Shown here piece after piece: positions 2,399-11,971 of a DNA stretch of 37,894 nt (position 1 is its first letter; the number at the start of each line of letters is the position of its first letter). The stretch comes from a virus (lineage: Duplodnaviria; Heunggongvirae; Uroviricota; Caudoviricetes), in the IMG/VR virus record IMGVR_UViG_2606217109_000004. One strand, 5' to 3'. The position numbers were made by a program, and so were the translations under genes. The notes under the pieces were generated by a model. The model saw nothing but the letters and a program-made list of their open reading frames with translations, ran no database searches and had not been told where the DNA came from.

Positions 2399-3096
2399 AA
2401 AACATCGCCGCACAGATGGTTAACTTTGACCGTGAGCAGATGCGCCGGATCGCCAACAACATGCCGGAACAGTACGACGAAAAGCCGCAGGTACAGCAGG
2501 TAGCGCAGATCATCAACGGTGTGTTCAGCCAGTTACTGGCAACTTTCCCGGCGAGCCTGGCTAACCGTGACCAGAACGAAGTGAACGAAATCCGTCGCCA
2601 GTGGGTTCTGGCTTTTCGGGAAAACGGGATCACCACGATGGAACAGGTTAACGCAGGAATGCGCGTAGCCCGTCGGCAGAATCGACCATTTCTGCCATCA
2701 CCCGGGCAGTTTGTTGCATGGTGCCGGGAAGAAGCATCCGTTATCGCCGGACTGCCAAACGTCAGCGAGCTGGTTGATATGGTTTACGAGTATTGCCGGA
2801 AGCGAGGCCTGTATCCGGATGCGGAGTCTTATCCGTGGAAATCAAACGCGCACTACTGGCTGGTTACCAACCTGTATCAGAACATGCGGGCCAATGCGCT
2901 TACTGATGCGGAATTACGGCGCAAGGCTGCCGATGAACTGACCTGTATGACAGCGCGAATTAACCGTGGTGAGGCGATCCCTGAACCAGTAAAACAACTT
3001 CCTGTCATGGGCAGAAGACCTCTAAATCGTGCACAGGCTCTGGCGAAGATCGCAGAACTCAAAGCTAAGTTCGGACTGAAAGGAGCAAGTGTATGA
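2395..3096 (+). CDS. P: Replication protein P (DnaB helicase loader)
   Basis: 233-aa translation matches lambda P; start overlaps O stop (ATGA). Confidence 0.95.
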   Translation: MKNIAAQMVNFDREQMRRIANNMPEQYDEKPQVQQVAQIINGVFSQLLATFPASLANRDQNEVNEIRRQWVLAFRENGITTMEQVNAGMRVARRQNRPFLPSPGQFVAWCREEASVIAGLPNVSELVDMVYEYCRKRGLYPDAESYPWKSNAHYWLVTNLYQNMRANALTDAELRRKAADELTCMTARINRGEAIPEPVKQLPVMGRRPLNRAQALAKIAELKAKFGLKGASV

Positions 3097-3383
3097 CGGG
3101 CAAAGAGGCAATTATTCATTACCTGGGGACGCATAATAGCTTCTGTGCGCCGGACGTTGCCGCGCTAACAGGCGCAACAGTAACCAGCATAAATCAGGCC
3201 GCGGCTAAAATGGCACGGGCAGGTCTTCTGGTTATCGAAGGTAAGGTCTGGCGAACGGTGTATTACCGGTTTGCTACCAAGGAAGAACGGGAAGGAAAGA
3301 TGAGCACGAACCTGATTTTTAAGGAGTGTCGCCAGAGTGCCGCGATGAAACGGGTATTGGCGGTATATGGAGTTAAAAGATGA
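3093..3383 (+). CDS. ren: Ren protein
   Basis: 96-aa translation matches lambda Ren; overlaps P stop. Confidence 0.9.
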   Translation: MTGKEAIIHYLGTHNSFCAPDVAALTGATVTSINQAAAKMARAGLLVIEGKVWRTVYYRFATKEEREGKMSTNLIFKECRQSAAMKRVLAVYGVKR

Positions 3384-4421: not shown

Positions 4422-4594
4422 GACGACAGCGGCGAAGTTTCACCGACATCATCTGCGAAAACTGCAAATACCTTCCAACGAAACGCTCCAGAAATAAACG
4501 CAAGCCAATCCCAAAAGAATCTGACGTAAAAACCTTCAACTACACGGCTCACCTGTGGGATATCCGGTGGCTAAGACATCGTGCGAGGAAATGA
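4418..4594 (+). CDS. ninE: NinE
   Basis: Translation [58 protein letters not shown] matches lambda NinE. Confidence 0.8.
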
Positions 4595-4596
4595 CA

Positions 4597-4938
4597 ATGG
4601 ATTATTCACAGTTAAGTGATTTTGAAATTAACCGAATGGTAGGAGACATAATTTTTAAAGGCCTTTGGGCATGTAAGCCTGAAACATCAGGGAATAACAC
4701 CAACAAATGGTATTACGGAAATGCCGATGTAAGTCTTGAGCCATTAAACCCTTTGCCTGACTACTGCAATGATCCGAGCGCTTCATGGCCGATTATTGAG
4801 AAATACAGGATTTCTATCTTAGACCAGTTAACTGAATGGTGTGTGGATGCAAAAGGCGTAAGCCCAATATTTGATACCAGACCTCTCCGCGCCGCCATGA
4901 TTGTCTTTCTCCTGATGCAGGAGGCCAATAATGCTTAG
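4597..4938 (+). CDS. Hypothetical nin-region protein (small phage protein, family not identified)
   Basis: ~113-aa ORF directly after ninE with AGGAAA ribosome-binding site; alternative start at 4555 or 4591. Confidence 0.5.
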
Positions 4939-5125
4939 CCCATCTCAATCCCTTCAATACCTGAAAGGAAGCATAGAGCGGGCTTCAATGTGCACAGAGT
5001 GGATTCTATCTAGGTTTAGCGCATACAGAAGATTGCCGGTAAAGGGCATGCCAAGCAAGTCGATGCTGCATATGCAAAAGAATGCGCGCTGGAAGGTATG
5101 GCGAGAACACAGGTTATCTGGCTGA
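4931..5125 (+). CDS. NinF-like small ORF, probably frameshifted or mosaic
   Basis: First ~20 aa ([21 protein letters not shown]) resemble lambda NinF, then diverge; the 3' region encodes a YbcO-like C-terminus ([23 protein letters not shown]) in another frame. Confidence 0.4.
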
Positions 5126-5144
5126 AAGAGGGGGTTATTAAGGC

Positions 5145-5507
5145 GTGAATACCTACAGCATCACATTACCCTGGCCTCCGAGCAATAATCGCTATTACCG
5201 CCATAATCGCGGGCGCACGCACGTCAGCGCAGAGGGGCAGGCATACCGCGATAACGTCGCCCGAATCATTAAAAACGCAATGCTGGATATCGGCCTGGCT
5301 ATGCCTGTGAAAATCCGCATTGAGTGCCACATGCCGGATCGCCGTCGCCGTGACCTGGATAATCTGCAAAAAGCCGCTTTTGACGCACTCACTAAAGCAG
5401 GTTTCTGGCTGGATGATGCTCAGGTCGTTGATTACCGCGTTGTGAAGATGCCTGTTACCAAAGGTGGGAGGCTGGAACTGACCATCACCGAAATGGGGAA
5501 TGAATGA
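5145..5507 (+). CDS. rusA: RusA Holliday-junction resolvase
   Basis: 120-aa translation matches E. coli DLP12 RusA ([18 protein letters not shown]...); apparent GTG start. Confidence 0.9.
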
Positions 5508-5644
5508 TGTTTGAGTTTAATATGGCAGAACTTCTTCGCCACCGCTGGGGGCGTCTGCGCTTATATCGTTTCCCCGGTTCTGTTTTGACCGATTACCGAA
5601 TACTGAAGAATTACGCCAAAACCCTGACAGGAGCAGGAGTATGA
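5504..5644 (+). CDS. ylcG: Small protein YlcG-like
   Basis: 46-codon [49 protein letters not shown] overlapping rusA stop; position matches DLP12 ylcG between rusA and quuD. Confidence 0.5.
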
Positions 5645-5729
5645 AGTCAGAGATAACAATCAACTAATACTGTTTTGTTGATTTTTGCTTGTAATTGGCG
5701 TTCTGGTCTGATTTTTGTGGAGTAAGTTG

Positions 5730-6113
5730 ATGCGTGATATTCAGATGGTTCTTGAGCGTTGGGGAGCGTGGGCGGCTAATAATCATGAAGATGTGACCTG
5801 GTCGTCCATTGCCGCCGGTTTTAAGGGATTAATTACTTCAAAAGTAAAATCTCGCCCGCAATGTTGTGACGATGACGCGATGATTATTTGCGGGTGCATG
5901 GCCCGTCTGAAAAAGAACAACAGCGATTTGCACGATTTATTAGTAGATTATTATGTAGTCGGTATGACATTCATGTCACTGGCAGGTAAGCATTGCTGCT
6001 CTGATGGTTATATCGGGAAAAGGTTACAGAAGGCTGAGGGCATAATTGAAGGGATGTTAATGGCATTAGATATCCGGTTAGAGATGGATATCGTTGTTAA
6101 TAACTCTAATTAA
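5730..6113 (+). CDS. quuD: Late-gene antiterminator Q (DLP12 QuuD-type)
   Basis: Translation [34 protein letters not shown]... matches E. coli QuuD (127 aa). Confidence 0.85.
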
Positions 6114-6146
6114 TATGCCAATTGTTTACTAAAAATTATTAAAAAT

Positions 6147-6164
6147 GGGGCGTTGCAACGCCCC
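6147..6164 (-). terminator. Candidate rho-independent terminator (perfect 18-bp palindrome) for minus-strand transcripts such as nmpC
   Basis: GGGGCGTTGCAACGCCCC, followed on the minus strand by a T-rich tract (ATTTTTAATAATTTTT). Confidence 0.45.
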
Positions 6165-6301
6165 CAAAAATAAAGGGTAATATATAACAGAAGGTTTATA
6201 TAGTTAGAAGCAAGGTTGTGCTCCTAAAGGAAGTGGCTTGAGGGAGCCACTTATATGTTGGGGAGGCAAAGCCTCCCGCAACATATCTTTTAGTAATCAA
6301 A

Positions 6302-7384
6302 TTAGAACTGGTAAACCATACCTACAGCAACGATATCATCGGTAGCAACGCCAGATGCTTTCGTGAAATCGCTCTTATCAATCAGGTTGATTTTGTAATC
6401 AACAAAAGTGGACATATTTTTGTTGAAGTAATAGGTTGCACCTACATCAATATATTCAACCAGGTCCTGATCACCCCACGCACCCAAGTCTTTTCCTTTA
6501 GATTGCAGGTAAGCAACGGACGGACGCAGACCGAAGTCGAACTGATATTGTGCAACTACTTCGAAGTTTTGTGCTTTGTTGGCAATATGGTTATTACCAA
6601 AAACAGTCATGTTCTGGGTTTCAGAATAGGTGGTAGCCAGATAGATGTTGTTCGCATCATATTTCAGACCAGCTGCCCATACTTCAGCATTTTGACCAGA
6701 TGCATTCAGGCTGTTGTTACCGTAGATAACCTGATTATTAGTGCGGTCAGATTTAGCATAGGTTGCACCTACACCGAATCCTTCATACTCATAAGTAGTG
6801 GAGAAACCGAAACCATCACCATTAGCTTCAGTTACGTCAGTGCGGTCATTTTTACCCTGATACTGAGCAGCAAAGTTCAGACCATCAACCAGACCAAAGA
6901 AGTCGTTGTTACGATAAGTTGCAACACCAGTGGTGCGACCAGTCATGAACACATCTGTTTGGGTCCAGGTATCGCCACCGAATTCTGGCAGAACGTCAGT
7001 CCACGCACCGATGTCGTATGCTACACCGTAGTTACGGCCGTAATCGATTGAGCCGTAGTCACCGAATTTCAGGCCTGCAAATGCAAGACGGGTTTTGTCT
7101 TTGGAGGAACCTTGAGATTCAGCGCGGTTGCCTTTGAATTCATATTCCCACTGACCGAAACCAGTCAGTTGATCGTTGATTTGGGTTTCACCTTTGAAGC
7201 CAAGACGGGCATAAGTAGTATCACCATCATCTGCATCATTAGAGGAGAAGTAGTGCTTAGCATTAACTTTCCCGTACAGATCCAGCTTGTTACTGTCTTT
7301 ATTATAAATTTCAGCTGCCTGAGCAGACATCGCCATCAGTACTGATGCAGCTACAGCAGAAATTGCCACTGTTAATTTTTTCAT
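6302..7384 (-). CDS. nmpC: Outer-membrane porin NmpC (OmpC/PhoE family), apparently intact
   Basis: Translation [23 protein letters not shown]|AEIYNKD... with signal peptide and C-terminal ...VYQF typical of general porins; start taken at MKKLT (7384). Confidence 0.9.
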
Positions 7385-7811
7385 CGTGAGCCCTTTTTTT
7401 GAACTATTATTAAAAAATGATGTCACTGCGCGATAAATATTCATCTAATCAATGTGATTATTTCAAGATGTAAGTTTTGGTTTCTCATTTGATTTGTGAA
7501 GTAGATCTCTATTTTTATCTGAACTTTTTCTATCGAATCCTATTCATGGCTCTTGGCTGAATAAAAATAAATCTATTAGCCAATTTATATTAATGGCTGT
7601 TATTTATAAGTGCTCTATAATTTGAAGGTTCAATTTAAATCGGCTAAAAATAACGCTGGAAATTATTTGTTGGTTATTTGTTGAGATTTGCTTATGTATT
7701 TGTAGTGGTGTTTTCAATACTCGGTAGCATTCTCGCAAATATCATTTAGTGGTTTACGTACGTAAAAAATTGGTTATGCTGTTAAGAGTGGTTACTTCGT
7801 CACACAGCTTA

Positions 7812-8171: not shown

Positions 8172-8668
8172 TGCCTCCATCATTACGAAAAGCCGTTGCT
8201 GCTGCTATTGGTGGCGGAGCAATTGCTATAGCATCAGTGTTAATCACTGGCCCAAGTGGTAACGATGGTCTGGAAGGTGTCAGCTACATACCATACAAAG
8301 ATATTGTTGGTGTATGGACTGTATGTCACGGGCATACAGGAAAAGACATCATGCTCGGTAAAACGTATACCAAAGCAGAATGCAAAGCCCTCCTGAATAA
8401 AGACCTTGCCACGGTCGCCAGACAAATTAACCCGTACATCAAAGTCGATATACCGGAAACAATGCGCGGCGCTCTTTACTCATTCGTTTACAACGTGGGT
8501 GCTGGCAATTTCAGAACATCGACGCTTCTTCGCAAAATAAACCAGGGCGATATCAAAGGCGCATGTGATCAGCTACGTCGCTGGACATATGCTGGCGGTA
8601 AGCAATGGAAAGGTCTCATGACTCGTCGTGAGATTGAGCGTGAAGTCTGTTTGTGGGGGAAACAATGA
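8171..8668 (+). CDS. rrrD: Endolysin with N-terminal signal-anchor-release domain (T4-lysozyme fold, DLP12 RrrD)
   Basis: 165-aa ORF with Gly/Ala-rich N-terminal hydrophobic segment then lysozyme-like domain; start overlaps essD stop. Confidence 0.9.
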
Positions 8669-9123
8669 GCAGAGTAACCGCGATTATCTCCGCTCTGGTT
8701 ATCTGCATCATCGTCTGCCTGTCATTGGCTGTTAATCATTACCGTGATAACGCAATCGCCTACAAGGAGCAGCGCGATAACAAGGCCAGTGAACTGGAGA
8801 AGGCGAACGCCACCATCGCTGACATGCGGAAGCGTCAACGTGATGTAGCAGAACTCGACGCAAGATACACAAAGGAGCTTGCTGATGCTAACGCGACTAT
8901 CGAAAGTCTCCGTGCTGATGTTTCTGCTGGGCGTAAGCGCCTGCAAGTCGCCGCCACCTGTGCAAAGTCAACGACCGGAGCCAGCGGCATGGGCGATGGA
9001 GAAAGCCCAGGACTTACAGCAGATGCTGAACTCAATTATTACCGTCTCCGAAGTGGAATCGACAAGATAACCGCGCAGGTTAACTACCTGCAGGAATACA
9101 TCAGGACGCAATGCCTGAAATAA
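8665..9123 (+). CDS. rzpD: Inner-membrane spanin subunit Rz
   Basis: Translation [20 protein letters not shown]... with N-terminal transmembrane segment and coiled-coil; matches RzpD. Confidence 0.85.
8879..9070 (+). CDS. rzoD: Outer-membrane lipoprotein spanin subunit Rz1, embedded in the +1 frame of Rz
   Basis: 63-aa ORF entirely inside rzpD; signal peptide with lipobox LLGVSAC and proline-rich mature region. Confidence 0.7.
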
Positions 9124-9154
9124 TTTTTTTGCAAATCACAAAGTCCATTTAATG

Positions 9155-9210
9155 AGCCTCGCGATGCGGGGCTTTTTGCAATAAATGCGTACCGCAACGC
9201 ATGTTTTTTA
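9155..9210 (+). terminator. Tandem rho-independent terminators after the lysis cassette
   Basis: Imperfect hairpin plus T-run at 9156-9177 and hairpin ATGCGT-ACCGCA-ACGCAT followed by GTTTTTTA at 9185-9210. Confidence 0.6.
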
Positions 9211-9324
9211 CACCGAACCTGCCCCTTTGGAATGGGCCTTTGAGGATACCAGTTAGTGCTGGCGAGCCTCGGTGGGCTGGTTTCCTGTGCGGCAAAGGTT
9301 CATTTCAAAGAGTAGGTACACGCT

Positions 9325-9822
9325 ATGAAATCATTAACCCTCTTCAATCAACCAATTCGTATCGGTGAAGATGGCATGATCTGCCTCACTGATATGTGGA
9401 AAGCCAGTGGTAAAAGTGAATCTGAATCGCCTTACCACTACCTGCGAAACAAGCAGACCAAAGAGTTCTTAGCCGAGCTGGAGAAAAACCACGAATCTGT
9501 GGTTTTTACTGAGCGCGGTGTACACGGTGGAACATATGGCGGGAAGTTTGTTGCTTACGATTATGCGGCTTGGTTAAACCCCGGATTTAAATATGCAGCC
9601 TATAAAGTCCTGGATGACTACTTCACCGGAGAACTTCAGCATCGCAACAGCTTAAGTGCACAGCTCAATATGAAGTGTCATGAGTTTGATCAGAAAAAAG
9701 ATATGGCGAGCTTCTGCGGACAAGGGCTGGCGGCATGGCGCTATACGAAGCCAGTGTTGGTCGCTGAGATTAACTCCCTGGCTAACCAGCTGCAGATTAC
9801 GATCCCCGGGCTTCCGGGATGA
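9325..9822 (+). CDS. KilA-N domain protein (putative antirepressor-like or DNA-binding moron)
   Basis: 165-aa ORF whose N-terminal region resembles KilA-N domains (DNA-binding fold); own upstream region after the lysis terminators. Confidence 0.65.
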   Translation: MKSLTLFNQPIRIGEDGMICLTDMWKASGKSESESPYHYLRNKQTKEFLAELEKNHESVVFTERGVHGGTYGGKFVAYDYAAWLNPGFKYAAYKVLDDYFTGELQHRNSLSAQLNMKCHEFDQKKDMASFCGQGLAAWRYTKPVLVAEINSLANQLQITIPGLPG

Positions 9823-10076
9823 GTGATCGTGTCATTGAATGCGCCTCCAGAGCGGGGCGTGACTTCTCAGAGTTCATGAAAGGTGAGAAGGGCATGATGG
9901 AAGCATTGTCCTCGGTGGATGAGTTTGGCGAGCAGCTGCGCCTCAACGGCTGTGTCAATCATCACTTTGTTAGCTACATGATGCGGAACTCGATCATGCA
10001 GGCATTCATGGACATGGCAAAAGCCGAGAGGAAAGAAGAGCGCCGGCGTAAGCGAGCGGAAGCAAAAGCGAAGTAG
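9819..10076 (+). CDS. Hypothetical 85-aa protein translationally coupled to the KilA-N gene
   Basis: ATGA start/stop overlap with the preceding ORF; acidic/helical body with very basic C-terminal tail (RKEERRRKRAEAKAK); no family recognised. Confidence 0.5.
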   Translation: MSDRVIECASRAGRDFSEFMKGEKGMMEALSSVDEFGEQLRLNGCVNHHFVSYMMRNSIMQAFMDMAKAERKEERRRKRAEAKAK

Positions 10077-10362
10077 CCATTACAAAGCCTATCTACGGGT
10101 GGGCTTGATAATGGCTTATACCCTACACGGGATAACTTAACTGATATCCCTTTTAAAGGATAAAGGTATTCAAGCCTGACACATCATGCGCTGTATCGTC
10201 GCCGTATTCCCGTATTAACAGAGACCGTAGCCCGACGGGGAACTCCTTCTGCGCGAGTGTGTGGGAATAATCAAAAACGATGCACACCGGGGTTACCGGG
10301 TACACATATTTCATCATGCCAGCGAGTCCGGTTCTGGCACGGAAGAAACCGGACGTTATGAT

Positions 10363-10773
10363 TTAGTGCGGAAATATTTGTGTAGTGTTCTGAATGTTCT
10401 CAGTAAAGAGTAATGAATTATCAAAGGTATAGTAATACCTTTTGTTTTCGTGGATATTTGTAATCCATCTGAAAACCCCTGCAGTAGCAAGATTTTTCCT
10501 GTATTCGTAAAATGATAACTCTCCTGATTTGAATCCTTTTAAGGTGGCTTCTATAAGGCATTTATTTTTTGAAAATCTTACATTTACAACCTTACCCTGT
10601 CCTTTTATTAAAACCGTATTATCGTTTTCAAGAACAAGATGAATATTCTCTGTAGCTAAATAGTAAATGTAATGTGAGACATTGTGACGTTTTAGTTCAG
10701 AATAAAACCAGTGATAGTTTAAATTATTTCGCACTTTATCGAATATTTGTTTAAAAATGGCAACCTGAGCCAT
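10363..10773 (-). CDS. ybcV: YbcV-like protein (DUF1398 family), AT-rich moron
   Basis: Translation [18 protein letters not shown]...[35 protein letters not shown] resembles DLP12 YbcV; low GC. Confidence 0.7.
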
Positions 10774-10829
10774 TGTAGTACCTTCCATGTGATATGAGGG
10801 GCGTAGTCTGCACGATTATCTAAATTGCT

Positions 10830-11063
10830 TCAATCTGGTCTGATCTGTTTTCTGAGCAATTCAGTAATGTCACTCTTTTCTTTGTTTGCTTCAGGAGAAA
10901 CTCTTTTTTCTGAGCACAGTCTCCGGCGGCAGGCTTCAATGACCCAGGCTGAGAAATTCCCGGACCCTTTTTGATCAAGAGCGATGTTAATTTGTTCAAT
11001 CATTTGGTTAGGAAAGCGGATGTTGCGGATTGTTGTTCTGCGGGTTCTGTTCTTCGTTGACAT
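10830..11063 (-). CDS. ylcI: YlcI-like small protein (DUF3950-type)
   Basis: 77-aa ORF with conserved ...RNIRFPNQMIEQINIALDQKGSGNFSAWVIEACRRRL... resembling DLP12 YlcI. Confidence 0.6.
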   Translation of the reverse strand: MSTKNRTRRTTIRNIRFPNQMIEQINIALDQKGSGNFSAWVIEACRRRLCSEKRVSPEANKEKSDITELLRKQIRPD

Positions 11064-11099
11064 GAGGTTGTCCCGTATTCAGTGTCGCTGATTTGTATT

Positions 11100-11450
11100 G
11101 TCTGAAGTTGTTTTTACGTTAAGTTGATGCAGATCAATTAATATGATACCTGCGTCATAATTGATTATTTGACGTGGTTTGATGGCGTAGATGCACGTTG
11201 TGACATGCAGATGATAATTATTATCATTTTGCGGGTCCTTTCCGGCGATCCGACAGGTTACGGGGCGGCGACCTCGCGGGTTTTCGCTATTTATGAAAAT
11301 TTTCCGGTTTAAGGCGTTTCCGTTCTTCTTCGTTGTAACTTAATGTTTTTATTTAAAATACCCCCTGAAAAGAAAGGAAACGACAGGTGCTGAAAACGAG
11401 CTTTTGGGCCTCTGTCGTTTCCTTTCTCTGTTTTTGGCCGTGGAATGAAC
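11100..11450 (+). other. cos region: cohesive-end site cosN (about 11262-11274, GGGCGGCGACCT) with flanking cosQ and cosB terminase-binding region
   Basis: Sequence ...CCGACAGGTTACG|GGGCGGCGACCT|CGCGGGTTTTCGCTATTTATGAAAATTTTCCGG... matches the lambda cos junction; lies immediately upstream of Nu1. Confidence 0.85.
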
Positions 11451-11451
11451 A

Positions 11452-11971
11452 ATGGAAGTCAACAAAAAGCAGCTGGCTGACATTTTCGGTGCGAGTATCC
11501 GTACCATTCAGAACTGGCAGGAACAGGGAATGCCCGTTCTGCGAGGCGGTGGTAAGGGTAATGAGGTGCTTTATGACTCTGCCGCCGTTATAAGATGGTA
11601 TGCCGAAAGGGATGCTGAAATTGAGAACGAAAAGCTGCGCCGGGAAGTTGAAGAACTGCGGCAGGCCAGCGAGACAGATCTCCAGCCAGGGACTATTGAG
11701 TACGAACGCCATCGACTTACGCGTGCGCAGGCCGACGCACAGGAACTGAAGAATGCCAGAGACTCCGCTGAAGTGGTGGAAACCGCATTCTGTACTTTCG
11801 TGTTGTCGCGGATCGCAGGTGAAATTGCCAGTATTCTCGACGGGATCCCCCTGTCGGTGCAGCGGCGTTTTCCGGAACTGGAAAACCGACATGTTGATTT
11901 CCTGAAACGGGATATCATCAAAGCCATGAACAAAGCAGCCGCGCTGGATGAACTGATACCGGGGTTGCTGA

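Follow-up and report, generated by a model that had tools for sequence, protein, structure and literature searches.

The two open reading frames that lie between the Rz gene and cos in this lambda-like prophage, referred to below as A (165 aa) and B (85 aa), form a conserved two-gene cassette that is horizontally mobile among enterobacterial phages. The window, i.e. the whole stretch of 37,894 nt that was analyzed, carries a sequence that is not new: the pair is already catalogued in the classic phages HK620 (as hkbK/hkbL), HK97 and HK022, and is also found in mEp235, 2851 and 1717, while B corresponds to PHROG 875. A sequence-only reading of the same DNA had taken this to be the most plausible place in the window for something undescribed, which does not hold for the sequence of the pair. 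A literature search found no functional study of the hkbK/hkbL pair. As for its role, we lean, tentatively and with somewhat less than even confidence, toward a non-essential, late-expressed DNA-binding accessory module carried on a mobile late-operon cassette. The elements of the locus are the following.

9154-9178, plus strand: terminator-like hairpin GAGCCTCGCGATGCGGGGC with a T-run (RNA fold), the conserved left boundary of the cassette
9185-9208, plus strand: second terminator-like hairpin ATGCGTACCGCAACGCAT (9185-9202) followed by TTTTTT, present only in the window/2851 version of the leader
9209-9324, plus strand: leader 5' of A with a weak ribosome-binding site, GAGTAGG; partly conserved
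9325-9822, plus strand: ORF A, 165 aa, KilA-N + ORF11CD3 (Pfam, PHROG, AlphaFold)
9819-9822, plus strand: ATGA overlap of the A stop (TGA) and the B start (ATG), no Shine-Dalgarno sequence before B
9819-10076, plus strand: ORF B, 85 aa, predicted three-helix protein with a basic end of the C-terminal helix (PHROG 875, AlphaFold)
9837-9866, plus strand: codons 7-16 of B, GAA TGC GCC TCC AGA GCG GGG CGT GAC TTC, with near-invariant nucleotides across clades
10075-10116, plus strand: strong stem-loop just 3' of the B stop (-25.6 kcal/mol, z = -4.9), the right boundary of the cassette
10363-10788, minus strand: DUF1398/YbcV-like gene (Pfam E 3.3e-43, GC 31.5%), a neighbor outside the cassette
10830-11063, minus strand: DUF3950/YlcI-YnfO family gene (GC 43.6%), a neighbor outside the cassette
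11263-11274: lambda cohesive-end sequence GGGCGGCGACCT

The position of the pair between Rz and cos was confirmed in the sequence, as was the coupling of a 165-aa KilA-N protein to an 85-aa frame through ATGA that the sequence-only reading had described. The antiterminator Q is encoded upstream in the window prophage, and Nu1 starts at 11452. An identical prophage of E. coli has the pair annotated at the same positions in RefSeq; together with the dN/dS of B and a gene order that recurs in hundreds of loci, this annotation establishes that A/B is not a chance arrangement of open reading frames. The DUF1398 and DUF3950 genes both lie on the minus strand and are therefore convergent on A/B. They had been described as an AT-rich convergent pair, which is correct for their orientation and for the base composition of the YbcV-like gene, but not for that of the YlcI-like gene. 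Many loci with A and B have no DUF1398 gene. A 54-aa minus-strand frame at 10153-10317, annotated in PhiR49_1, was rejected as non-coding, with a pN/pS of ~1 in every frame and no family match. An Rfam search of positions 8600-11500 returned chance-level matches only.

The cassette does follow its own terminators, as had been proposed, in the form of the hairpins at 9154-9178 and 9185-9202. The first of these was kept in all five contexts aligned (the window, HK620, phage 2851, a tail operon of Klebsiella phage RAH1 and Erwinia phage phiEt88), and a terminator scan picked up its equivalent in HK620 and RAH1. At the other end, the core of the stem-loop at 10075-10116 is retained in HK620, 2851, mEp235 and RAH1, and the RAH1 counterpart scores as a minus-strand terminator; this structure is probably a terminator or a barrier to the convergent leftward transcript. 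A sigma-70-like promoter was absent from the leader in the three contexts scanned (window, HK620 and RAH1), using a simple, crude consensus scan that a weak or non-sigma-70 promoter would escape. In every locus examined A and B point in the direction of the late genes. Because there are terminators upstream, no detectable promoter and late-gene orientation, the cassette would most likely be silent in the lysogen and depend on Q for late transcription. Late-only expression of A and B is thus what the consensus scan, read together with lambda biology, suggests, and the cassette appears to ride in the late operon as a passenger, insulated by terminators. The orientation and the upstream terminators, together with the fact that no named PADLOC system model was matched by A or B, disfavor the earlier suggestion of a small anti-phage system expressed in the lysogen.

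The distribution of the cassette shows its mobility. It was present in 521 of 5426 complete E. coli genomes (~10%), and its carriers include HK620, the Stx2 phages 2851 and 1717, PhiR49_1, ECP1 and Klebsiella phage tail operons. The unit of hairpin, A, B and hairpin occurs in at least four virion backgrounds: between Rz and cos in the lambda-like one, before an HNH gene in the HK97-like one, between Rz and terS in the P22-like HK620, and between a tube or chaperone gene and the tape-measure gene in siphovirus and myovirus tail operons. In the sense of Juhala and Hendrix, a moron is inserted as a discrete unit between genes that are neighbors in related phages, with its own promoter and a downstream terminator, expression from the prophage and often a deviant base composition. 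Otherwise related phages either have or lack the cassette at the sites between Rz and the packaging genes or between tail genes, its hairpin boundaries are kept, and a hairpin does follow B. However, its GC content is ordinary (A 47.6%, B 52.7%, window 51.7%), and the crude scan of three leaders detected no promoter of its own. The designation as a moron therefore stands for the discrete insertion and fails for the promoter and the base composition.

The pairs of HK620, 2851, 1717, PhiR49_1 and ECP1 are the same cassette as that in the window. Their A proteins are 96-100% identical to A; for B, identity is 98.5% across residues 1-66, the 78% of its length covered by the BLAST alignment, in which the basic tail is masked as low complexity. 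They share the ATGA overlap and the slot after Rz with the window pair and differ only in the genes on the right, which are hkbM and terS in HK620 and an HNH gene in 2851, compared with DUF1398, YlcI and cos in the window. In HK97 (p60/p61), mEp235 (gp59/gp60) and HK022 (an unannotated pair), the gene immediately before B is again a KilA-N gene, the location after Rz and the late orientation are the same, and B is 86-94% identical over the BLAST-aligned part (residues 1-54 for HK97, 1-66 for the others). The upstream protein in these phages is, in contrast, a different KilA-N protein, only 23% identical to A, which carries P63C rather than ORF11CD3 and is separated from B by a 2-nt gap instead of an overlap. 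The B gene of HK97 is frameshifted. More distant are orf11 of Pseudomonas phage D3 and hkbK of phiEt88, which are full-length KilA-N + ORF11CD3 proteins (27% and 51% identity, respectively) encoded within late/structural operons. No B gene follows either of them, which makes B an addition peculiar to cassettes of the Enterobacteriaceae type.

A, the product of hkbK in HK620 and a full-length homologue of the D3 orf11 product, which we take to be the protein behind the name ORF11CD3, contains two Pfam domains. KilA-N (PF04383) spans residues 9-101 (E 1.3e-15, 57.6 bits versus a gathering cut-off of 23.8) and ORF11CD3 (PF10549) spans residues 109-161 (E 2.4e-13, 50.5 bits versus a cut-off of 25). 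The protein matches PHROG 129 and 10441, and its median dN/dS, as a rough estimate, is about 0.045. From its domain content we infer that A is a member of the Bro/KilA-N network that binds DNA through its KilA-N domain. The AlphaFold model (pLDDT 84.5) consists of an alpha/beta domain of mixed strands and helices (1-84) and a helical hairpin (86-130 and 132-156); judging from this model, the long hairpin of ORF11CD3 probably serves in oligomerization. A search of the model against PDB folds gave nothing significant, Mbp1 (APSES domain) appearing weakly at E 0.79, and PDB sequence searches gave zero matches for A or for B. Profile and structure searches placed neither protein in a phage housekeeping family. 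In relatives, KilA-N, pRha and P22_AR_N heads exchange the ORF11CD3 module. Bro-network proteins (pRha, Bro-N, Ant), such as Rha of P22 and phi80, are comparable to A in that this module also stands behind pRha and P22_AR_N heads, and differ from it in the N-terminal DNA-binding domain. The slot between lysis and terminase genes is also where P22 carries rha, a gene whose own function is poorly defined.

B corresponds to hkbL of HK620, p61 of HK97 and PHROG 875, whose profile covers residues 1-85 of 85 (E 5.6e-54); it matches no Pfam or NCBIfam family. An acidic body and a strongly basic tail had been noted earlier. The tail (residues 67-85, pI 11.0) is indeed strongly basic, but the body (residues 1-66, pI 5.2) is only mildly acidic. 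The AlphaFold model (pLDDT 93.2) has helices at 3-20, 26-42 and 48-84. Fold searches against PDB and BFVD gave designed helical bundles as the best matches (E > 0.1), nothing usable, and the predicted fold resembles no known DNA-binding protein in these databases. The median pairwise dN/dS, 0.116 over 113 distinct nucleotide sequences, indicates purifying selection, and B is a genuine gene with strong conservation. Full-length relatives are at least about 56-64% identical, with 18 invariant positions in the family alignment, and B is by a wide margin more conserved than its upstream partner. Searches of 5.8 billion and 1.8 billion sequences, which gave 138 clusters and 21 representatives respectively, placed the family in Enterobacterales only.

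The distant relatives of B are N-terminal domains of T5orf172 (GIY-YIG-superfamily) phage proteins; no other distant kin were found. A profile search of 1.84 billion proteins recovered P0131 (E 2e-5) and P0135 (E 9e-4), both with T5orf172/MUG113 C-terminal domains, and B matched PHROG 4284, the N-terminal domain of T5orf172 proteins, at E 7.6e-6. Two or three distant sequences thus carry this link, at 27-31% identity and with invariant Gly, Ala, Phe and Leu positions in common. Genes that fuse a B-like N-terminal domain to T5orf172/MUG113 occur at the same genomic hot spots as the cassette. One lies in the lysis-to-terminase slot and another in a tail operon directly 5' of a KilA-N-P63C gene. 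The gene of this type at locus L246 adjoins Arc/Mnt-like genes and an Ant remnant in an arrangement that resembles an immI region. A parallel exists in phage ICP1 and its satellite PLE, which have T5orf172 homing-endonuclease-like proteins: CapR, a free-standing N-terminal domain of T5orf172-type proteins, represses late genes by binding DNA in a sequence-specific manner (Netter et al. 2021, PMC8096241). Like CapR, B is a small free-standing protein matching the N-terminal domain of T5orf172/GIY-YIG-superfamily phage proteins; the likeness is one of logic, and no sequence kinship is claimed. CapR is cysteine-dependent; in B, by contrast, conservation of the Cys and His residues does not extend to the distant relatives. 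A candidate zinc site in B (C8, C45, H48 and H49) was accordingly rejected: it is kept in close relatives and replaced in P0122, P0131, P0135, P0113, P0116 and P0117.

The linkage of B to the upstream gene was analyzed in 239 B loci from IMG/VR, duplicates included, since a scan of species-representative genomes gave 5 loci, too few for statistics. An intact KilA-N gene abuts B in 228 of them; in 5 the KilA-N gene is frameshifted within A or at the junction, and in 6, all in tail operons, only a 3' remnant of the KilA-N gene precedes an intact B, A having been deleted. B thus lies directly behind a gene of the Bro/KilA network in ~97% of these loci, and the pair does recur across prophages. 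The ATGA junction was kept in 153 A1-type loci, while 75 A2-type loci have the 2-nt gap instead, and a Shine-Dalgarno sequence is missing before B at both types of junction. Having no ribosome-binding site of its own, B depends on A for its synthesis. The partnership is nevertheless separable, because each gene is also found alone; A-type genes without B occur in phiEt88, D3 and phage cdtI. Three architectures precede B, namely KilA-N-ORF11CD3, pRha-ORF11CD3 and KilA-N-P63C. Kinship between ORF11CD3 and P63C, as an explanation for B following both, was rejected at an hhalign probability of 2%. Two candidate Rosetta-stone fusions of A and B were likewise set aside. P0001 joins a partial ORF11CD3 domain to B by a frameshift, and P0136 joins the first 80 residues of an A2-type KilA-N domain in frame with B in a myovirus tail operon; both look like products of deletion or frameshift. 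Even where the upstream KilA-N proteins match each other at only 23% and end in unrelated C-terminal domains, B stays near-identical (94%), which argues against a tightly co-evolved A-B interface.

The accessory role that we favor builds on the observed anatomy, conservation, mobility, linkage, domain relationships and predicted folds. A self-contained cassette of terminator hairpin, leader, A, B and closing hairpin would travel in late operons of temperate phages of enterobacteria. It would give no transcript in the lysogen and be read only late in lytic growth, by Q-antiterminated polymerase. A would bind DNA through KilA-N and oligomerize through ORF11CD3. B, kin to what is probably a targeting or DNA-binding domain, would be made by termination-reinitiation as ribosomes finish A, and the two proteins would therefore appear together and in linked amounts. 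Cooperating physically or functionally, A and B would act late and on DNA, either as a regulator of, or as an interference factor against, the DNA of co-resident or competing phages or satellites. Both would be dispensable for virion production, as the frameshifted B of HK97 and the lack of B in phiEt88, D3 and cdtI suggest.

That the same B accompanies divergent KilA-N partners fits equally well with B alone acting on a conserved host or DNA target. B could be a small protein made late that targets a host protein or nucleic acid of a conserved kind, perhaps in anti-defense or host takeover, and that has no more than transcript and translation in common with A. Its greater conservation compared with its partner, its confinement to Enterobacterales, its occurrence after three partner architectures and the six tail-operon loci with B alone all agree with such independence. 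We nevertheless consider it unlikely, since a KilA-N gene is still immediately 5' in about 97% of B loci, the synthesis of B is tied to A, and the distant kin of B are domains of DNA-acting T5orf172 proteins, one of them again beside a KilA-N gene.

The family resemblance of A raises the alternative of an antirepressor module, in which A, with B as a helper or specificity factor, would inactivate the repressor of a co-resident prophage or satellite and so spread induction. The Bro/KilA network also holds P22 Ant-type proteins, and an ORF11CD3 module identical to that of A stands behind a P22_AR_N head at Salmonella locus L255. A has weak PHROG 'anti-repressor' matches (E 5.7e-4 and 2.4e-3) through the shared C-terminal module, its homologue in RAH1 is annotated 'antirepressor', and the B-like/T5orf172 gene of L246 has immI-like surroundings. 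However, Pfam found no Ant-family domain (ANT, P22_AR_N or P22_AR_C) in A or B, which separates the pair from P22-type antirepressors, and the 'antirepressor' labels are annotation only. Characterized antirepressors are usually controlled by LexA or by their own repressor, but no LexA- or repressor-controlled promoter or operator was visible in the leaders scanned, and a late operon behind terminators would be too late for the phage's own induction. The antirepressor module of the sequence-only reading thus retains a family resemblance and gains no specific support, and we regard it as rather unlikely.

A short stretch at the 5' end of B also requires explanation. At 9837-9866 the fraction of synonymous differences is 0.16, compared with a mean of 0.345 (permutation p = 0.006). 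The stretch is predicted to be able to form a 7-bp RNA hairpin, a 20-mer taken from it occurs only once in the window, and it marks recombination junctions: chimeras that lack the rest of B always keep the first 14-22 B codons, including these 30 nt. P1 KilA is lethal on expression, and A might by analogy be a toxic DNA-binding effector to which B or the 30-nt element, always retained with A, provides self-immunity, as in a toxin/antitoxin-like pair or an abortive infection or exclusion system. For BstA, a KilA-N-like prophage abortive-infection protein, self-immunity comes from a short DNA element lying across a coding-sequence start (Owen et al. 2021, PMC8585504). The locus is alike in having a prophage accessory protein, a KilA-N-type domain and a short conserved DNA at the start of a coding sequence. 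However, BstA is a two-domain protein of about 300 aa that is encoded beside the repressor rather than in a late operon and is expressed in the lysogen (PMC8585504), while A has 165 aa, another C-terminal domain, a protein partner and a place in a late operon behind terminators, with no lysogen promoter found in the scan. A is not a member of the BstA family, its PADLOC result being a partial match to the unvalidated candidate PDC-S22 (E 1.2e-8, residues 60-90 only). Nor does the pair resemble a type II toxin-antitoxin system: its partners are not obligate, Pfam and PADLOC found no toxin or antitoxin domain, the leader scan detected no promoter that could be autoregulated, and, in contrast to cognate immunity pairs, one and the same B allele goes with KilA-N proteins of 23% identity. 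Immunity pairing of this kind, including the toxin/antitoxin-like pair proposed earlier, is therefore improbable. It is most improbable of all that 9837-9866 is a cis-acting element with a functional link to the Bro/KilA protein encoded upstream, serving A and/or B as a recognition site in DNA or RNA, which would make the cassette a late-expressed DNA-interference system with self-recognition against competing phages or satellites, for which BstA and its aba element would be the analogue, differing in the protein partner found here and in the action during lytic growth.

Genes for proteins of the Bro/KilA-N network rank with the most common accessory genes in temperate phages, and few have a known role. 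The cassette described here is abundant, both in complete E. coli genomes and in the Stx2-converting phages of O157:H7, and several of its carriers, among them HK620, HK97, HK022 and the mEp series, are amenable to genetics. Comparison shows two partners that can be separated, insulation within the late operon, a small partner with kinship to the N-terminal domains of T5orf172 proteins and a stretch conserved at the nucleotide level. If the pair is only a minor late regulator, it would be an ordinary pair of accessory genes. If it acts on the DNA of competing phages or satellites, or induces co-resident prophages, it would bear on the ecology of Stx phages in polylysogens.

In the sequence-only reading, the interval from Rz to cos was a moron cluster in which, behind terminators, a KilA-N gene (ORF A, encoding A) overlaps an 85-aa ORF (ORF B, encoding B) by ATGA, and B was given an acidic body and a basic tail. 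Both the ORF list and the sequence itself show this arrangement, two terminator-like hairpins were indeed found after Rz, and B has a pI of 5.2 over residues 1-66 and of 11 over residues 67-85. The features of this region, with the Q antiterminator gene as placed in the matching Escherichia coli AR_0077 prophage, are as follows.

4475-4852, Q antiterminator gene (AR_0077 prophage)
9154-9178 and 9185-9202, two terminator-like hairpins downstream of Rz
9325-9822, plus strand, ORF A, 165 aa (ORF list and raw sequence)
9819-9822, plus strand, ATGA overlap of the A stop and the B start (raw sequence)
9819-10076, plus strand, ORF B, 85 aa (ORF list and raw sequence)
10363-10788, minus strand, DUF1398/YbcV gene downstream of B, GC 31.5%
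minus strand, DUF3950 YlcI/YnfO gene downstream of B
11263-11274, lambda cohesive-end sequence (raw sequence)
11452, start of Nu1 (raw sequence)

The lambda-like prophage of AR_0077 is 100% identical to the window and adjoins appY-ompT-envY; RefSeq names its A 'KilA-N domain-containing protein' and its B 'hypothetical protein'. In Pfam, A has a KilA-N match (residues 9-101, E 1.3e-15) followed by ORF11CD3 (residues 109-161, E 2.4e-13). For B neither Pfam nor NCBIfam gave a family; it is a full-length match to PHROG 875 (E 5.6e-54; labelled 'unknown function').

Whether B is conserved at all, a point on which the sequence-only reading depended, was examined using 113 distinct nucleotide sequences, taken from about 240 loci in phages and IMG/VR. 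Pairwise dN/dS had a median of 0.116 for B, which is therefore under constraint, and roughly 0.045 for A. The family is narrow, with 138 clusters among 5.8 billion sequences and 21 representatives among 1.84 billion, and its named members are from Enterobacterales throughout. An intact KilA-N ORF abuts B in 228 of 239 B-matching loci (duplicates counted in): 153 are of the KilA-N-ORF11CD3 type seen in the window, joined by the ATGA overlap; the remaining 75, of the KilA-N-P63C type, have a 2-nt gap. Five loci have a frameshift, either in A or where A meets B. In the other six B is alone in a tail operon, where a 3' remnant of the P63C-type gene just upstream indicates that A was deleted. Co-occurrence of the pair thus held for most loci, but each gene is also found by itself; A-type genes without B include Erwinia phiEt88 hkbK, Pseudomonas D3 orf11 and one Cronobacter homologue. 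Enterobacter homologues without B have the KilA-N head of A and a different C-terminus, and on one contig pRha-ORF11CD3 is followed by an identical B. Since ORF11CD3 and P63C showed no relationship in a profile-profile comparison (probability 2%), B is not tied to a single partner domain. A Shine-Dalgarno sequence ahead of B is absent at both junction types, so B probably relies for its translation on ribosomes that have just completed the upstream gene. B is a genuine gene, tightly yet not obligately linked to a gene of the Bro/KilA network.

The pair occurs widely. In HK620 it is hkbK/hkbL, between Rz and terS, and it was also found in Stx2 phages 2851 (where A is named 'kilA'), 1717 and the WGPS series, in PhiR49_1, ECP1 and Ss-VASD, and in several Salmonella phages. 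Among 5426 complete E. coli genomes, 521 had a match to the pair, which covered at least 80% of it in 389. BLAST aligned residues 1-54 of B in HK97, and residues 1-66 in HK022 and mEp235-type phages, at 86-94% identity; in all of these B follows, after 2 nt, a KilA-N protein that is 23% identical to A and ends in P63C. The HK97 protein (p61; 2501-2734 of our locus) is frameshifted beyond residue 54, which removes its basic tail; the HK022 RefSeq record has both genes without annotation (2501-2698 of our locus). That B is far better conserved than its partners, and that it survives alone at some loci, would suit a role for B that is independent of A and directed at a conserved host target, although we rate this rather unlikely.

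In the tail operon of Klebsiella phage RAH1 the pair separates the major tail and tape-measure genes, and an E217-like myovirus has a B-containing derivative between the tube and tape-measure genes. Flank alignments place the left edge of the cassette at the first terminator hairpin and the right edge at a strong stem-loop just past B (10075-10116; -25.6 kcal/mol, z = -4.9), both kept in every context examined. From its recurrence in lambdoid, HK97-type, Klebsiella tail-operon and E217-like contexts, the cassette therefore travels as a unit among unrelated virion modules. The sequence GCTTATACCCTACACGGGATAACTTAACTGATATCCCTTTTAA(A/C)GGATAAA (10117-10170) abuts the post-B hairpin in the window and phage 2851, and in HK620 and mEp235 is found about 300 nt farther downstream, just 5' of hkbM or an HNH gene (about 3040-3110 in both L004 and L005, two of the compared loci); this could be a conserved sequence at module boundaries. 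The presence of cassette DNA nearly identical to that of E. coli (A 96-99% identical) in a 'Candidatus Nanosynbacter' MAG contig (Patescibacteria bin; L009) and in 'Actinobacillus' phage vB_Apl-pPE4 (L250) likely reflects mis-binning or mis-attributed hosts.

Other genes were noted in passing. A 54-aa minus-strand ORF at 10153-10317, annotated as hypothetical in PhiR49_1 and absent from RefSeq, has pN/pS of about 1 in all frames and no family match, and is therefore probably non-coding; in many lambda-like prophages its DNA nevertheless accompanies the cassette on its right side. PHROG 413 calls the DUF1398/YbcV product a 'head protein', which looks like an annotation artefact because of the position, the minus-strand orientation and the AT-rich insertion. 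A second Bro-network gene, with a P22AR C-terminal domain, lies at 1437-2045 in the early/nin region. The Q-holin interval (5008-7767) holds as cargo a minus-strand lipocalin-family gene, a YbgA-family gene and a helix-turn-helix gene; PhiR49_1 has an OmpD porin gene in this slot.

The AlphaFold model of B (pLDDT 93.2) has three helices (3-20, 26-42 and 48-84), the last running into the basic tail, and Foldseek gave no significant match in PDB or BFVD. B thus stayed without a Pfam, NCBIfam or fold match in profile and structure searches of the kind that the sequence-only reading had proposed; A resolved into KilA-N and ORF11CD3. The model of A (pLDDT 84.5) has an alpha/beta KilA-N domain and, after it, a long hairpin of two helices (86-130, 132-156), as would fit a head that binds DNA and a stalk that oligomerises; a PDB search gave no significant match. 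T5orf172 and MUG113 domains belong to the GIY-YIG superfamily, and profile searches found B similar to the N-terminal 60-70 residues of proteins ending in these domains (PHROG 4284, E 7.6e-6; distant relatives P0131, E 2e-5, and P0135, E 9e-4). Such B-like/T5orf172 genes occupy the same two hot spots as the cassette. One is flanked by the lysis genes and terS; a second, between a tail chaperone gene and a long gene that is probably the tape measure, is directly upstream of a KilA-N-P63C gene, with Arc-like, Ant-remnant and Bro-N genes beside it. That insertion (L246, 5001-9327), with its P22_AR_N remnant, two Arc-family genes and Bro-N gene, resembles an immI-like accessory island. A striking local cluster of Bro-network genes was seen on a Salmonella Kottbus contig (L255, 560-4034), where three ORF11CD3 genes with swapped heads (two KilA-N, one P22_AR_N) and an additional KilA-N gene surround one lysis cassette. 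T5orf172, Bro-N and KilA-N are counted as one domain-shuffling network (PMC8096241; PMC10111431), and CapR of the ICP1/PLE phage-satellite system, a free-standing T5orf172-type N-terminal domain, is a sequence-specific DNA-binding repressor (PMC8096241).

Codons 7-16 of B (9837-9866, ECASRAGRDF), which include a rare AGA codon, are almost invariant in nucleotides across 18 clade representatives; the synonymous-difference fraction averages 0.345 and falls to 0.16 in this stretch (permutation p = 0.006). In several distinct chimeras, B is reduced to exactly its first 14-22 codons behind a KilA-N gene (14 in Salmonella L255, 15-16 in L166-169 and L306, 22 in 'Actinobacillus' phage pPE4), and their mosaic junctions fall just 3' of the stretch. 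Its 20-mer was seen in IMG/VR in this context only, among loci with enough upstream sequence to judge, and it can fold into a 7-bp RNA hairpin. Either a joint for homologous recombination between modules or a cis element linked to the upstream gene could account for this stretch.

The cassette, of ordinary GC content, is always oriented with the late genes and preceded by conserved intrinsic-terminator hairpins, and no sigma-70-like promoter was found in the leader in the window, HK620 or RAH1. In lambda only Q-modified polymerase is expected to read past such terminators, and by this analogy A and B would be expressed late in the lytic cycle and not in the lysogen. This expected timing sets the cassette apart from bor, lom and other classical morons, and also from BstA, a protein made in the lysogen from a gene beside the repressor locus. 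We tentatively propose, with less than even confidence, a dispensable, late-expressed accessory module acting on DNA: A would bind DNA, B would be a small co-translated partner drawn from the same Bro/T5orf172 domain pool, and the role would probably be regulatory or in mobile-element conflict. A putative antirepressor acting on other prophages has family resemblance as the one point in its favour and is unlikely, since A lacks an Ant domain and the expected timing is wrong for the phage to promote its own induction. A BstA-like abortive infection system or toxin/antitoxin pair is quite improbable, as no named PADLOC system matched, no lysogenic promoter was seen, A and B are separable, and one B allele serves KilA-N proteins that are 23% identical.

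Of the sequence-only reading as a whole, the pair anatomy and the reality of B stood; its suggestion of something undescribed did not hold for the sequence, as the cassette is a member of the Bro/KilA-N accessory network previously catalogued in classic phages. It is very tractable for experiment.
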